From contig CAZPID010000001.1 in assembly GCA_964586885.1 (NCBI GenBank), forward strand, positions 24,080 to 82,117: a stretch of DNA of 58,038 bases, given 5' to 3'. Positions 9,094 to 17,549 of this stretch are shown here, piece by piece. The notes beneath the pieces are model-generated. The model was not told where the DNA came from. It was given only the letters and a program-made list of their open reading frames with translations, and did not search any database. Positions within the stretch are counted from its first letter, which is position 1. Every line of letters begins with the position of its first letter. The translations under genes and the position numbers were made by a program. Origin of the DNA: an uncultured archaeon. Lineage in GTDB: Archaea > Aenigmatarchaeota > Aenigmatarchaeia > CG10238-14 > SCSR01.

Positions 9094-10200
9094 TTACAGC
9101 CAGTCCTGTAAATTAGGAGCTTCTCTATATCCTCCCCATGCATCTTCAAAACCTTTTTCTTTTGCTTTGTCATAAATTTCTACAGCTTCTTCAACCCTTG
9201 GATATTTTTTGATATATTTTTGGAATATATCATCGTTAAGTGCTAACCAATTGGCAAATTTTTCTAATTCAAATAACTTGTACAGATTATGCAGATATCC
9301 ATAAAGATAATGTAAAGTTTCACTAAACTTTGTAAATTGAATTCCTTTAGATTCTGCATCCTTACAAAATGGACATATACATGGAAAAATGGAATAGTCA
9401 ATATTTAGCTTATCTGCACTATCTCCAGCTGGCTGATCAGTGATAAAGGGTGTCAACATTATCTTTCCTCTACCAGCTAACATAGAGAAACTAGAAGTAT
9501 CAGAAGTCAATTTGTTAAAATCTTTACTGAAATATGCTCCAGAAATTAAACCTTTTTGTCCACTCATAGCAAAAATATGCACATTTTTGATTCCTTTTTC
9601 TCTTAGAAAAGATAAGTGTAGTGCTGCAGCAACACTATCATTTGGAGGCCGTGGAGAACATGCAATGCCATCGAATAAATCTAAATGAGGTTCTATAACA
9701 TTTTTCCACCAAAACTTTATCTCTCGATAACTAATTCCATGTAAAACTCCATAGAGTTTAACATCATGTTTTTGTGCTTCTGATTTTATCTCTCTGATAC
9801 TTTTTTCAGTAAATCTTGCACAATCTTGGAAATGGCCATCTGAAATCGTTTCCGCATGTAAGCCTCTTGGAGGAAGATCTAAAATGAAAGCGATATCACA
9901 ATTTTGTGCCTGCCAATTAAAAACTGTAGAAGGATTAAATCTCTCTCCCTGACTCCACTGAGAATAGCCACCTGAATCTCCATACACCATTACGTCTTTC
10001 GGAACTTCATAGACATCTCTCCAGTGATCAAAACCGTATTGATTTTTATTTTGATAACCATAAAAATAGGAAATAAGTAAACTCTTTCTCCTTATAGGAT
10101 GATTTTCTTTCCACCATCTCATATCTACGCTACCTTGGGCCCAAGACTGTTTACTTGCAAACGTAAGTGCACCGGAAATGGCGGGAATATATTCAATCAT
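9094..10200 (-). CDS. dpdA: DpdA-like (TGT-family) DNA-guanine transglycosylase
   Basis: TGT catalytic motif YGDSGGYSQW; zinc site CICPFC...H; SDTSS motif; sits in an operon with preQ0 synthesis genes; ends NLQDWL. Confidence 0.8.
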   Translation of the reverse strand: MIEYIPAISGALTFASKQSWAQGSVDMRWWKENHPIRRKSLLISYFYGYQNKNQYGFDHWRDVYEVPKDVMVYGDSGGYSQWSQGERFNPSTVFNWQAQNCDIAFILDLPPRGLHAETISDGHFQDCARFTEKSIREIKSEAQKHDVKLYGVLHGISYREIKFWWKNVIEPHLDLFDGIACSPRPPNDSVAAALHLSFLREKGIKNVHIFAMSGQKGLISGAYFSKDFNKLTSDTSSFSMLAGRGKIMLTPFITDQPAGDSADKLNIDYSIFPCICPFCKDAESKGIQFTKFSETLHYLYGYLHNLYKLFELEKFANWLALNDDIFQKYIKKYPRVEEAVEIYDKAKEKGFEDAWGGYREAPNLQDWL

Positions 10201-10981
10201 TTCGTTTTTCTCCTAAAAAGTCTTTAATTTTTTTTACTAATCGTTCTTGGTTTTCTAACTCATAGTCCCATATTACTAAAGTATCAAAATTATATTTTTT
10301 ATAGAACTTTACCTTCCTATCTATTTCTTCTTCAGTGTGCCAATAACTCCCACAAAGTTCAATTAATAATCTTTTATCTTTATTTATAAAATCTGGGCAT
10401 TTATCAACGATAATTACTTTGCCATCTCCAACATAATCAAAAGGTAAGCTAAATTTTTTCAATAAGTCTATAAGTCTTCTTTCTAAATTATTAGGTCTAT
10501 TTTTTCTAGACTGTAAGATTTTAGGTAGACTTTTTTGAATACTACTAACCGTATGCATTGCTACTATAGAATTTTTCATTTGATGATCTCTATATTCTTG
10601 ACCTTTCCATAATTCTTTAAGTTTGTTTGATATTCTCGATCTAACCTCTGAAGTAAAAACAACATCATAGTTTCTAGGTTTACCTAATCTCGCCAAACTC
10701 ATTTTTTTCTTAGTCTCAATAGAATGTTTCCTATCTCTCATTGGAGAAGATAGACCCAACATTCTGACTCTGTGATTATCTTTCTGTTCGTCTGTTAATT
10801 TATGTCCTTTCATTCCTGAAACTTTACCTCTATGACTATCTACCTGCATCTGACGATAAATTGGATCTAACCACAAACTTTTTACAGTTTTAGAAAGTTT
10901 TTTGCTAGTTTCTGGATTATTCATAACCTCTTTCATCTTTAATGACATATAATTTCTATATTTCAAACTATTCTTCTTCAT
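10193..10981 (-). CDS. free-standing homing-endonuclease-like protein (NUMOD-like repeats + PD-(D/E)XK/Vsr-like nuclease)
   Basis: C-terminal CPDFINKDKRLLIELCGSYWH...LVIWDYEL. Paralogous to 30883..31641, 43489..44250 and to the QueE intein core. Wedged between dpdA and the SDR gene with overlapping stop/start codons. Confidence 0.65.
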   Translation of the reverse strand: MKKNSLKYRNYMSLKMKEVMNNPETSKKLSKTVKSLWLDPIYRQMQVDSHRGKVSGMKGHKLTDEQKDNHRVRMLGLSSPMRDRKHSIETKKKMSLARLGKPRNYDVVFTSEVRSRISNKLKELWKGQEYRDHQMKNSIVAMHTVSSIQKSLPKILQSRKNRPNNLERRLIDLLKKFSLPFDYVGDGKVIIVDKCPDFINKDKRLLIELCGSYWHTEEEIDRKVKFYKKYNFDTLVIWDYELENQERLVKKIKDFLGEKRND

Positions 10982-11673
10982 AGACTTTTGCCACCATCGA
11001 TAATTATGTTTGTACCTGTCATGTAATCAAATTCACTCTTAGTTAAATTAAAAATTACTTTTGCTATTTCATAAGCACTAGCTTCTCTCTTTTGTGGTAT
11101 CATATCTAAAACATCTTGTGGAAGAGGTGCGTTTCCACACAAATTAGTTTTTACCAAACCGGGAGAAATACAATTAACTCTAAACTGAGGATATTTTTTT
11201 GCTAAACATTTTGTAAAATGGATTAATGCAGCTTTTGTTACAGCATAATTAATAATGAAATCCTCATTTTCTATCCCAGAAGTGCTTCCTACATTAATAA
11301 TTCTTGCTCCTTTATTTAAAAATGGAATGAGATTACGAGTTAATTCCATTGGAGCAACTAAATTGACATTTAACAGATTCCACATCATAGCTGTGCTATA
11401 GTCTTTAAAATCTACCAAGTTAAGCATTCCAGCATTATTCACTAGAAGATCATACTTTCCATTAGCATAAATTGGAAGTTTTTCTATTTTTTGGACATTT
11501 TCAAAATTAAAGGGTATTCCTTTAACCCTTTTGAAGAGAGGATCTTCTAAAAATACTTTGTCAGTATCTCTAGAAATCGGTACTACATTCCAATGATGTT
11601 TTACTAAGATCCTAGTTATTTCATAACCTATTCCATGAGTTGCTCCTGTTACGATCGCTCTTTTCTTTAACAT
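10978..11673 (-). CDS. short-chain dehydrogenase/reductase (SDR)
   Basis: AIVTGATHGIGYE (TGxxxGxG), NNAG, catalytic YAVTKAAL (YxxxK). Confidence 0.85.
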   Translation of the reverse strand: MLKKRAIVTGATHGIGYEITRILVKHHWNVVPISRDTDKVFLEDPLFKRVKGIPFNFENVQKIEKLPIYANGKYDLLVNNAGMLNLVDFKDYSTAMMWNLLNVNLVAPMELTRNLIPFLNKGARIINVGSTSGIENEDFIINYAVTKAALIHFTKCLAKKYPQFRVNCISPGLVKTNLCGNAPLPQDVLDMIPQKREASAYEIAKVIFNLTKSEFDYMTGTNIIIDGGKSL

Positions 11674-15396: not shown

Positions 15397-17160
15397 CTAT
15401 GTTCCTCTTTCATTGCCATAAAGCATGATCTGTAACCTTGGACTATATCTGATTCCATATTTTTTACATTCTTCAACTAGCCAAATACTATTTCTAGTAA
15501 TCGTCTTAGCATCTATACCCAAAGGCATGAAATAGGTCTTACTTGTCGGTATTTGAAATGGTTGGAGAAAGTCGTCAAAAACTTCCTTGATATCTTCTTT
15601 ACGACCAATAACAAACTTAAATTTAGTTCTGCTGTTCCTATTAAACCATTTTAGAGCAGGTGCAATAATCCTTTTATCTCTTGGCATTTTAGAATTAGAA
15701 AGTTTTGGACTTACGTCATAATATATTGGAAATGGCTCCTGTTCAAAAATTATCGTACCATTAGTTTCAATTTCATAACTTCTTATCCAAGGAAATTCCT
15801 CCTTAACTTGTATGAGCAGTTCTGCCAAACCTTCTTGAACTAAAGGTTCTCCTCCAGTAAAAATCACATGTGCATTTGCAAAGGCCTGAATCCTTTTCAT
15901 AATATCTTCAGAGTTCATTGGTACAAATTCAGTAGGTAAATTTCTCATCTTAATTAACTCTGGTACTGCATATGGAGTATCACAATTATGAGCTAAAATA
16001 CCATTTGCATAATAGTTATGATTTGAAGTCCTAAAATTGTAAACTGTAAGTTGGTAGCATTCTGGATAGTGTTTAAAACCTTCATTATGTCTACAATTCT
16101 TGATTCTTCTAGCTCCCATTCTGACTAATTGTTTAGGATTTGAAACTTTAGAAATAGATGTTACCCTTGTTCCATTGGTAATAAATCTATTAACTCTATC
16201 AATCATATTATTTCTACCATTATTATTTTTTTGGTATATTCTTCCGTTAACATCAAGCATTAAACACTCCCATCCAAAATTTTTGAAAAATATTTTTCTT
16301 TCCTCCGACCATCTTTCATCTCTATCCATATAAGTAGGATCATAAAGTTCAATAATTTTTTTCTGTCCTATGACTTTAAAGTCTGGATTTCTAAATTTTT
16401 TTATTTTGTTACCTATCCATAATTTAGCATTTCCTACATATTCTATCGGTAAATTATTCATTTCGAATTCATTAATTGCAATTTTTTCTAATCCGCTTGG
16501 TCTATGTTTATGAGACTTCATATTTTTTACCACTATTTCAGGATCGAACATTGGATTATGAATTTTTTTACAATTACTCTGATTTTTTCTCCATTCTTCT
16601 GTACGCAAATATGGTTTAATTTTTCCACTACCATATCCTTTCCTAACAGAATCTGCTACCTTTTTAACTATATTTTTATCTTTCATTGGATTATAATTTT
16701 TCATCTTCCAAGAAAGATAAGTTTCTCTAGGTAATCTATCTATTAATTCATCTATCTGTAATTCTTTTGCTCTTACATATTGTCCTCGATCTATAGAATA
16801 AATTGGATGCTCTTTAGTTACAAACAATGAAATGCCATGATCAAATGTTATCTTAATTATTTCAAGACCAGATACTTCTCTTCTGAAAATATCTTGTACG
16901 ACCTGTAATTCTAATTCACCTTTACTACCTTTGCCTAAAATTCTCTCTCCAATTTTAATATCTTTAGCCTTTTTAGTTCCGTTTTCACTATAGATTCTAG
17001 TATTTGGTATTAAACAATACCCACAAAATAAGTTACACCCATAGAACCTGATAAAAGTTGTTGGTTCACCAACAAAATAACCTTCTCCTTGTATTGAAGA
17101 AAATATCTCTGAGATTGCATATTTTAGATCTTTCCTTAAATTTATTTTTTGCGTCTCCAT
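15397..17160 (-). CDS. queE: 7-carboxy-7-deazaguanine synthase (radical SAM), interrupted by an intein
   Basis: [33 protein letters not shown][intein]-CDTPYA; 587 aa, or 243 aa after splicing. Confidence 0.85.
15985..17016 (-). mobile_element. QueE intein (344 aa) with PD-(D/E)XK/Vsr-like endonuclease core
   Basis: Starts CLIPNTRIY, block B VTKEHPIY, ends [11 protein letters not shown] with a +1 Cys. The core ([35 protein letters not shown]) resembles the free-standing HEG at 10193..10981. Confidence 0.8.
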
Positions 17161-17549
17161 CCCTTTACCTCGATTCCATATTTAGAAGTTTCTTGTATAT
17201 CGATACCAATTCCAGCAGCTTTTGGAAATGCCTTAAATAATGAAGATAGCATATTTTTCGTAATCGTTTCTGTATCTGCTTCTCCTATATTTCCTCTATA
17301 CGAGTCTAAAATTGGTTCTATTAACTGCTTCATTGTTTTATAATCTATCCAATCGCTTTGTAATAGTTCAACTTTAATTTTAACATTTTCGTGTCCATGC
17401 GTATCACAACATTTTTTATCTGTCAATTCAGATCTATCAGAAATATAATGAGTAAAAGAAATGGTTCCTGTATAATGCCTTACTTGCAGAAATTCTACAT
17501 CTGTATGCTCTTTTAATTTTTGATAAACCGTCTGATCAAAAACGGACAT
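17142..17549 (-). CDS. queD: 6-carboxytetrahydropterin synthase (PTPS/QueD family)
   Basis: 135 aa; [16 protein letters not shown] (Cys + HGH zinc/catalytic motif); operon context. Confidence 0.65.

Follow-up and report, generated by a model that had tools for sequence, protein, structure and literature searches.

A predicted 7-deazaguanine DNA-modification operon in an archaeal viral element carries a conserved candidate tailoring module

Enterobacteria phage 9g modifies its DNA with 2'-deoxyarchaeosine (dG+) by means of FolE, QueD, QueE, Gat-QueC and DpdA1, and Gat-QueC and DpdA suffice for dG+ (Hutinet et al. 2019, PMC6884629). Extended phage pathways add DpdL, DpdM, DpdN, QueF, ArcS2 and QueC* to the core of 7-cyano-7-deazaguanine (preQ0) synthesis and DpdA, and archaeal viruses have a DpdA subfamily of their own; eight derivatives have been catalogued (Cui et al. 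2023, PMC10516641). We analysed a stretch of 58,038 nt, hereafter called the window, from the assembly of an uncultured Aenigmatarchaeota archaeon (GCA_964586885.1, contig CAZPID010000001.1, positions 24,080-82,117 of the forward strand). It contains a viral operon at window positions 9094-17549 that follows the same logic as the 9g system, with the same core enzymes and predicted insertion of the base by an enzyme of the tRNA-guanine transglycosylase (TGT) family. In contrast with 9g, which has no radical S-adenosylmethionine (SAM) enzyme besides QueE, no short-chain dehydrogenase/reductase (SDR) and no second QueC, the operon codes for all three. We consider it somewhat probable that it represents a viral 7-deazaguanine DNA-modification system equipped with a conserved tailoring module and making a base beyond the eight described. 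The kind of system is known; the tailoring set is new.

The operon consists of eleven successive minus-strand open reading frames (ORFs) whose ends abut or overlap by 1-23 nt. PolB begins two bases past it, and a primase and a PCNA-like ORF lie upstream. A preliminary description made from the sequence alone had reported both this arrangement and the placement between primase/PCNA and polB, which we confirmed; one of the eleven ORFs is predicted to be a homing endonuclease (see below). FolE, GTP cyclohydrolase I (14782-15396; 204 residues), matches PF01227 (E=3e-28) and the NCBIfam FolE model (E=2e-26). The QueD-like 6-carboxytetrahydropterin synthase (17142-17549; 135 residues) gives a weak match to Pfam PTPS (E=0.018); it harbours the CxxxHGH signature (CCDTHGHEN) and scores E=5e-8 against a QueD profile derived from 40 related loci, with the window sequence left out of the profile. 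QueE, the 7-carboxy-7-deazaguanine (CDG) synthase (15397-17160), has a 243-residue extein split by an intein and matches four NCBIfam QueE models (E=1e-14 to 3e-21) as well as intein N- and C-terminal models; once spliced, it regains [11 protein letters not shown], and the extein gives a Radical_SAM match (E=1e-11). Homology therefore supports a route from GTP to CDG via FolE, QueD and QueE, together with a TGT-type base exchanger.

The putative base exchanger, a DpdA-like transglycosylase of 368 residues, is encoded at 9094-10200. It has no Pfam match at E<=0.01; in particular, it does not match DUF6610 (PF20314), the family that marks DpdA4 of archaeal viruses (PMC10516641), and hence it does not qualify as a DpdA4 protein. 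A single-sequence search of the PDB returned PPR-repeat proteins, which were spurious matches, and a family profile was needed instead. That profile detects the archaeal enzyme ArcTGT (1iq8) at E=1.7e-8 and bacterial TGTs at ~1e-4. In the family alignment, the DSGG motif, the second Asp in (F/S)D(S/T)SS and the CxCPxC...HN motif are all invariant. The AlphaFold model (predicted local distance difference test score, pLDDT, 80.8) matches only TGTs, with template modelling (TM) scores of ~0.6, plus the DNA preQ0 insertase DpdA (7ui4). These fold matches span the entire protein, without a PUA or other RNA-binding domain. The protein thus has the TIM-barrel fold of the TGT superfamily, its catalytic Asp in DSGG, the second Asp and the zinc site. 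Comparison with the classical phage DpdA family using hhalign gave a probability of 92.7%. The profile of the latter family (A4) has no PDB sequence match; it is linked to annotated phage DpdAs by tblastn, with matches to DpdA or 'queuine tRNA-ribosyltransferase' genes in 297 isolated phages, and by hhalign. A word-indexed homologue search with the window protein found five proteins, i.e. four relatives with 28-76% identity and an identical fifth one. Judging from these comparisons, the protein and its L001 and L007 relatives belong to a separate archaeal-virus lineage of TGT-fold enzymes, distinct from that of the 9g DpdA. DNA is its presumed substrate, as suggested by the viral context, the neighbouring pathway genes and the lack of a PUA module.

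Two ORFs code for QueC-family proteins. Canonical QueC enzymes have the signature SGGxDS, YxQxHxxE, VPxRN, YPDC and C(x)8CxxCxxC, and Y35 and Y131 of Escherichia coli QueC are essential for preQ0 synthesis (PMC13329287). The full signature is found in neither of the two window proteins; it is present in the QueC of L056, a relative with a minimal gene cluster. QueC1 (13049-13900; 283 residues; PF06508, E=7.5e-36) has the motifs SGGMDS, IGQRSERGE, TPARN, YKDN and C(x)24CGCCCNRR. Among isolated phages, it is most similar to the QueC half of the 9g Gat-QueC (31% identity over 89% of the query), with which it shares YKDN/YPDN and CGxCxxxRR, the hallmarks of Gat-QueC QueC domains. However, QueC1 starts at the PP-loop and has no N-terminal class-II glutamine amidotransferase domain, unlike 9g Gat-QueC; the relatives L004 and L007 do carry a GATase_6/7 domain. 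On these grounds QueC1 is best described as an enzyme of the Gat-QueC (dG+ synthase) type minus its amidotransferase domain. The recognizable core listed in the preliminary description (FolE, QueD, QueE, QueC and a DpdA-like TGT enzyme) thus holds apart from QueC, which is not canonical. Its statement that the preQ0 pathway is complete does not, and since QueC1 is of the Gat-QueC type, the base that reaches the tailoring steps may be 7-amido-7-deazaguanine (ADG) or archaeosine base (G+) rather than preQ0.

The second, divergent protein, QueC2 (14046-14804; PF06508, E=2.9e-23), agrees with the preliminary description of another QueC-family PP-loop ATPase with a C-terminal extension, which is ~50 residues long and conserved. 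Its zinc motif is canonical and its PP-loop reads SGGVDS, but LGSRYQSRE, IPYRN and IGDR replace YxQxH..E, VPxRN and YPDC, so that the residues matching E. coli Y35 and Y131 are both replaced. The subfamily has its own motif set (LGH[RK]Y, IPDR). A word-indexed search for QueC2 yielded only three proteins, and we used in its place an exhaustive search among 1.84 billion representative proteins, which gave 127 representatives at E<=1e-30. Several members are fused, at either end, to a small haloacid dehalogenase (HAD) phosphatase of the NT5C/PNKP type; examples are P0034 (L058:1765-2817), P0082 and P0178. In most loci of flavour B as defined below, a minimal, ~95-residue phosphatase of this sort (DxDxT, NT5C/PNKP-like) adjoins QueC2, e.g. 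U93 (L004:12667-12948). The best solved relative of QueC2 is Cap9 (9nto; E=1.3e-7), ahead of Bacillus subtilis QueC (3bl5). From Cap9, of type IV CBASS defence, and QatC, of Qat defence, it is known that a QueC-type scaffold is able to join CDG to amines besides ammonia. Both work in bacterial defence and modify the N-terminus of a protein, whereas QueC2 belongs to a viral biosynthetic operon and has its own motifs and C-terminal extension.

The radical SAM enzyme (11956-13062) belongs to a new, virus-restricted family. It matches PF04055 (E=4.6e-10), and an alignment of 26 sequences showed conservation of C40, C44 and C47 of the CxxxCxxC motif and of four other cysteines, C273, C290, C325 and C328. 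The combination of CxxxCxxC with C-terminal auxiliary Fe-S cysteines defines the twitch/SPASM subgroup; because the auxiliary cysteines number four and not seven, the enzyme is twitch-like without a full SPASM domain, which narrows its initial description as SPASM/twitch-like. Foldseek comparisons of its AlphaFold model (pLDDT 89.9) returned SuiB, BlsE, MoaA, SkfB, viperin, PqqE and AbmM, with TM scores of 0.5-0.65. The best sequence match among solved structures is MoaA (E=6e-9), over the core only, and with the MoaA model TIGR02666 the enzyme reaches 28.3 bits, far short of the cut-off of 284. From these comparisons we assign it as a twitch-type enzyme with no close characterized relative. 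In the BFVD database, the 571-residue protein A0A8S5QS09 of Myoviridae sp. ctgXL3, named '7-cyano-7-deazaguanine synthase', can be structurally aligned to our radical SAM model across 346 columns (TM 0.57), and this match raises the possibility that it combines a radical SAM enzyme and QueC in one chain.

The SDR (10978-11673), recognized as such from the outset, is a classical, FabG-like NAD(P)H ketoreductase according to its matches to adh_short_C2 (E=7e-34) and adh_short (E=2e-32). It has the motifs TGATHGIG, NNAG, GSTSG and YAVTK, including the Ser-Tyr-Lys set, and its closest PDB matches are CylG and FabG. Pairs of a radical SAM enzyme and an NAD(P)H reductase exist in aminoglycoside biosynthesis (AprD4/AprD3), and the twitch-type dehydrogenase BtrN likewise acts on an aminoglycoside sugar. 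By analogy, the window combines a twitch-type radical SAM enzyme having a putative four-cysteine auxiliary cluster with an SDR-type reductase, although no sequence relationship to these enzymes is detectable beyond the superfamily level.

Another functional parallel, already drawn in the preliminary description, is the ArcS-RaSEA route to archaeosine of Euryarchaeota, in which a radical SAM enzyme finishes the side chain of the 7-deazaguanine after a group has been attached (PMC11298593). QueC2 could by analogy take the attaching role. The parallel holds as an analogy of function only: RaSEA acts on tRNA in complex with ArcS, whereas no ArcS is encoded in the window as a partner, and the window enzyme is nearest to MoaA, SuiB and BlsE. 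No match to ArcS or its DUF5591 domain was found in the eleven window ORFs or in the Pfam tables of the fetched loci, the 43 IMG/VR and two GTDB loci not having been screened. Compared with the pathways of Cui et al. (2023, PMC10516641), the principle that tailoring enzymes acting on a preQ0/DpdA core diversify the DNA base is the same, but the window lacks DpdL, DpdM, DpdN, QueF and ArcS. The initial impression that no known tailoring enzyme is present stands for QueF and ArcS; QueC1 resembles Gat-QueC without its amidotransferase domain. Conversely, a tailoring set made of a twitch-type radical SAM enzyme, an SDR and QueC2 is not mentioned in the 2023 catalogue (PMC10516641).

We next determined the distribution of the radical SAM family. 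A word-indexed search of 5.8 billion proteins identified 26 members. A scan of IMG/VR with the window protein alone found nothing; the family alignment was needed, and it detected 43 loci. Only two of 185,579 GTDB species genomes contain the family, both on short contigs of metagenome-assembled genomes (MAGs), and only one of these two loci, L053, has flanks of sufficient length; it carries the full cassette. No member was found by tblastn in 50,697 isolated-phage records with three family members as queries. One member is deposited under DPANN MAG names. The family is small and almost restricted to viruses. A full-text literature search found no description of the cassette, and the 'moaA' gene listed beside folE and queC/D/E in a virome paper (PMC12647753) is probably the same enzyme, mislabelled.

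To count the genes that accompany the radical SAM enzyme, family profiles were mapped on all loci, 44 of which are distinct and encode the enzyme. DpdA is found within 10 kb of the radical SAM gene in 40 of them, and the contigs of the remaining four break off early. FolE is present in 39 loci, QueD in 34 and QueE in 31. The SDR occurs in 31 loci, and in 28 of these its gene adjoins the radical SAM gene, often overlapping it. Two accessory sets were distinguished, the X125 set and the QueC2 set, which never occur together in one locus. Flavour A (25 loci) comprises a Zn-less QueC, X125, X164 (with faint similarity to PIG-L), a GT4-like glycosyltransferase and DpdA. In flavour B (16 loci), QueC2 and DpdA are combined with Gat-QueC or QueC1 and, in most cases, with the HAD phosphatase. 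The window belongs to flavour B, with the radical SAM enzyme, QueC1, QueC2, DpdA and FolE/QueD/QueE; it has no homologue of X125, X164, the glycosyltransferase, the HAD phosphatase or the phosphoribosyltransferase (PRTase) found in relatives. Cassettes are present both in contigs of PolA bacteriophages and in archaeal-type viruses with PolB, PCNA, primase and RFC. A related archaeal-type virus, L056, carries no more than QueE-QueD-FolE-canonical QueC-DpdA in the corresponding place next to PolB, which indicates that the extra genes of the window are an add-on.

The accessory genes of flavour A, e.g. L001:8062-8942 and L016:9903-11413, were found in 23 other loci as well, and their nature suggests a glycosylated deazaguanine. 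X125 is a protein of ~125 residues with invariant ITDD and GDFM.H..C motifs and no detectable homologue. Its interpretation as a QueF-like T-fold protein is unsupported, as its profile has no PDB match and L055 has a separate QueF-like protein beside X125. Z334, which at first looked like a cassette member, is now taken for a replication protein resembling a beta clamp, given a single weak DNA_pol3_beta match in L008; U206 is an acidic low-complexity protein. In L011 (8116-9084; PF00156, E=1e-6), L003, L012, L013, L017, L018, L049 and L051, a type-I PRTase domain is located at the N-terminus of FolE, and these fusions may serve to salvage the guanine freed by DpdA or to produce a nucleotide intermediate. 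Two loci, L001 and L055, code for the radical SAM enzyme, X125, glycosyltransferases, DpdA and a Vut_1/YhhQ-type transporter without FolE, QueD or QueE. This gene content suggests that the radical SAM enzyme acts at or after the preQ0 stage.

We propose the following pathway. FolE, the QueD-like protein and spliced QueE would convert GTP into CDG. QueC1 would activate the carboxylate of CDG with ATP, and ammonia would give an amide, a nitrile or an amidine (ADG, preQ0 or G+). QueC2, which keeps the ATP loop and the zinc site in a changed pocket, would act on a different substrate, in a second activation or ligation that requires ATP. Its fusion with or proximity to a small HAD phosphatase in relatives suggests that this substrate is phosphorylated; judging from its size of ~95 residues, the phosphatase has no detectable cap domain. 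The radical SAM enzyme, using a 5'-deoxyadenosyl radical and an auxiliary cluster fully ligated by cysteines, would catalyse a dehydrogenation, a dehydration or a bond cleavage, and the NAD(P)H-dependent SDR would then reduce the carbonyl or imine formed. The DpdA-like enzyme would replace guanine in viral DNA by the base in its finished or almost finished form. The outcome would be a 7-deazaguanine derivative other than the eight described, for restriction evasion. As 9g makes dG+ with Gat-QueC and DpdA, the QueC2, radical SAM and SDR proteins are surplus to any known product, and a new derivative is the most economical reading. Chances are about even that this is the first radical-SAM-dependent DNA-base tailoring system, with at least two undescribed hypermodifications in bacteriophages and in viruses of DPANN-type archaea, namely a base made with QueC2, with or without the HAD phosphatase, and a probably glycosylated base made with X125, X164 and GT4.

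Several observations weigh against the proposed pathway. The radical SAM enzyme matches MoaA best (E=6e-9) and otherwise generic twitch/SPASM folds, and since it has no close characterized relative, the type of reaction can only be guessed. The SDR, absent from 13 of the 44 loci, is hence not obligatory. In L001 and L055, the radical SAM gene occurs with glycosyltransferases and a preQ transporter and without SDR or QueC genes, so that its role may differ between contexts. Three features found in relatives, namely the HAD phosphatase, the Gat domain and the PRTase, are missing from the window itself. Lastly, QueC1 and QueC2 could share the two half-reactions of one known conversion.

The last point belongs to the alternative that no new base is made and that the additional enzymes offer another route, or a sturdier one, to a product already known, e.g. 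dG+, dADG or dPreQ0. Without a Gat domain, QueC1 and QueC2 could split the half-reactions, the SDR could re-reduce oxidized pterins, and the radical SAM enzyme could have an auxiliary or back-up role. QueC1 might indeed need help, since it lacks both the Gat domain and the Tyr corresponding to E. coli Y35. SDR-family pteridine reductases exist; the SDR gene is found beside FolE in many loci, its absence from 13 of them shows that it is dispensable, and the dihydropteridine reductase model TmpR is among the NCBIfam matches of the window protein, albeit far from the top. However, the best matches are the ketoreductases FabG and CylG, not pteridine reductases, and the partner that the SDR gene adjoins, and often overlaps, is the radical SAM gene (28 of 31 loci). 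Moreover, flavour-B loci with a complete Gat-QueC keep QueC2, the radical SAM enzyme and the SDR, even though 9g needs just Gat-QueC and DpdA, and the alternative accessory set includes a glycosyltransferase that no known deazaguanine product requires. We therefore regard this explanation as rather unlikely.

A second alternative is that the product is a free 7-deazapurine nucleoside or nucleotide comparable to toyocamycin or tubercidin, or that host tRNA is modified by the module, in either case for host takeover or competition instead of DNA modification. It would account for the PRTase domain fused to FolE in relatives (PF00156, E=1e-6) and for their NT5C/PNKP-type HAD phosphatases, the two enzyme classes to which ToyH and ToyI belong. 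In addition, the structural neighbours of the radical SAM enzyme include BlsE, MoaA, viperin and AbmM, which act on nucleosides or nucleotides. Neither the PRTase nor the HAD phosphatase is encoded in the window, however, and the PRTase could equally salvage guanine released by DpdA. The radical SAM enzyme occurs together with an enzyme of the DpdA type in 40 of the 44 loci, and the DpdA-like window protein, with fold matches across its whole length, has no PUA or other RNA-binding domain. This alternative appears improbable. The idea that the radical SAM enzyme and the SDR serve some other auxiliary pathway (molybdopterin, folate) and are in the operon by chance, as might be surmised from the Joint Genome Institute labels 'MoaA' or 'MoaA/NifB/PqqE/SkfB family' and from a DPANN virus survey that puts moaA, folE and queC/D/E under folate genes (PMC12647753), is contradicted by the distribution of the family, all but absent from cellular genomes (2/185,579) and inside deazaguanine clusters in essentially every locus, as well as by the MoaA model score (28 bits against 284) and the presence of four auxiliary cysteines instead of three, and it can be given hardly any weight.

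The production of a new base by the operon thus remains the reading that we favour. It agrees in part with the preliminary description, which had proposed that the extra enzymes convert preQ0 into a possibly undescribed derivative and had named their assignment to an unrelated pathway as grounds for abandoning the proposal. The radical SAM enzyme, the SDR and QueC2 recur in FolE/QueD/QueE/DpdA clusters on dozens of unrelated viral contigs and almost nowhere else, which strongly supports the proposal and excludes such an assignment; the substrate may be ADG or G+ rather than preQ0.

The remaining genes of the operon are probably not involved in the pathway. The products of orf98 (11673-11969; 98 residues) and orf51 (13897-14052; 51 residues), initially counted among the extra components of the operon, have no family match in profile searches and are not conserved. 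L054, whose radical SAM enzyme is 70% identical to that of the window, lacks orf98 and has the order QueC1-rSAM-SDR, the SDR gene directly overlapping the end of the radical SAM gene. L057 lacks orf51 and has the order rSAM-QueC1-QueC2, the reverse of QueC2-orf51-QueC1 in the window, with a 4-nt overlap between QueC1 and QueC2. From these comparisons with the closest relatives, orf98 is probably lineage-specific and both small ORFs probably lie outside the pathway. The 262-residue ORF at 10193-10981 shows weak matches to NUMOD3, DUF559 and Vsr, together with PHROG homing-endonuclease matches. It is most readily interpreted as a free-standing homing endonuclease with a Vsr/DUF559-like nuclease part, i.e. 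a mobile insertion and no pathway enzyme. Similar free-standing NUMOD3 and Vsr/DUF559 endonucleases are coded at 30883-31641 (+) and 43489-44250 (+), and a related copy is found in the QueE intein, whose endonuclease part is 27% identical to the 10193-10981 protein.

The QueE intein (15985-17016; residues 49-392, 344 residues) contains a homing-endonuclease insert and gives Intein_splicing, PT-HINT and Hint matches. Its boundaries (Y48/CLIPNT...AHN/CDT, with slashes at the junctions) lie just ahead of the third Cys of CxxxCxxC, and the intein therefore interrupts the radical SAM cluster motif itself (GCNLFCGY/C...HN/CDT). As the third cluster Cys is the +1 splice nucleophile, QueE cannot bind its cluster before splicing. 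Unrelated viruses repeatedly have inteins in their deazaguanine genes, namely those for QueE, Gat-QueC and QueC2. Examples are the Gat-QueC of L044 (721 residues) and the QueC2-like proteins P0040 (770 residues) and P0183 (705 residues); an intein in the 535-residue QueE of L031/L032 is suggested by protein length alone.

PolB (5810-9091, -) also has an intein, of 368 residues (6521-7624), located in the catalytic YGD/TDG motif (LYGD/SVTKD...LVHN/TDGLQ), and PolB with an intein is found in the related viruses L001 and L002. Directly downstream of PolB are genes for an N6/N4 DNA methyltransferase (5019-5819, -), a second, independent DNA-modification function of the element, and for an ERCC4/XPF-HhH2 nuclease (4337-4993, -). 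The replication module includes a MoxR-type AAA+ ATPase (23915-25024, -) paired with a protein containing a VWA domain (22127-23914, -), a pair also present in L056. At ~28-30 kb of the window, both the GC skew and the coding strand flip, with minus-strand genes to the left and plus-strand genes to the right, marking a point of divergent transcription. We considered whether the right half might be host chromosome and rejected this, as it codes for RFC, an MCM-like protein, a PD-(D/E)XK nuclease and further homing endonucleases. The genes at 44234-45184 (+), 53165-54166 (+) and 51110-52264 (+) encode two UbiA-family prenyltransferases and a geranylgeranyl-reductase-like flavoprotein. They share the element with the RFC, MCM-like and PD-(D/E)XK nuclease genes and may be archaeal lipid-modifying genes carried by the virus. 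No tRNA genes were found in the window.

Each of the eight known 7-deazaguanine DNA bases changed our understanding of how viruses escape restriction and of which host nucleases recognize modified DNA. A defined enzyme set that occurs in no isolated phage and is conserved across unrelated viral lineages predicts new bases, as well as new radical SAM and PP-loop chemistry on nucleobases. The genes and loci listed here lend themselves to expression and liquid chromatography-tandem mass spectrometry (LC-MS/MS), the bacteriophage versions, such as L004 and L031 of flavour B or L016 and L053 of flavour A, being easier to express than the archaeal one. New modified bases would be useful for restriction-resistant DNA and for the calibration of sequencing signals. 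The analysis also corrects automated annotation, as virome surveys label these enzymes 'MoaA' or folate genes, where they would instead belong to a DNA-modification module shared by bacteriophages and archaeal-type viruses.

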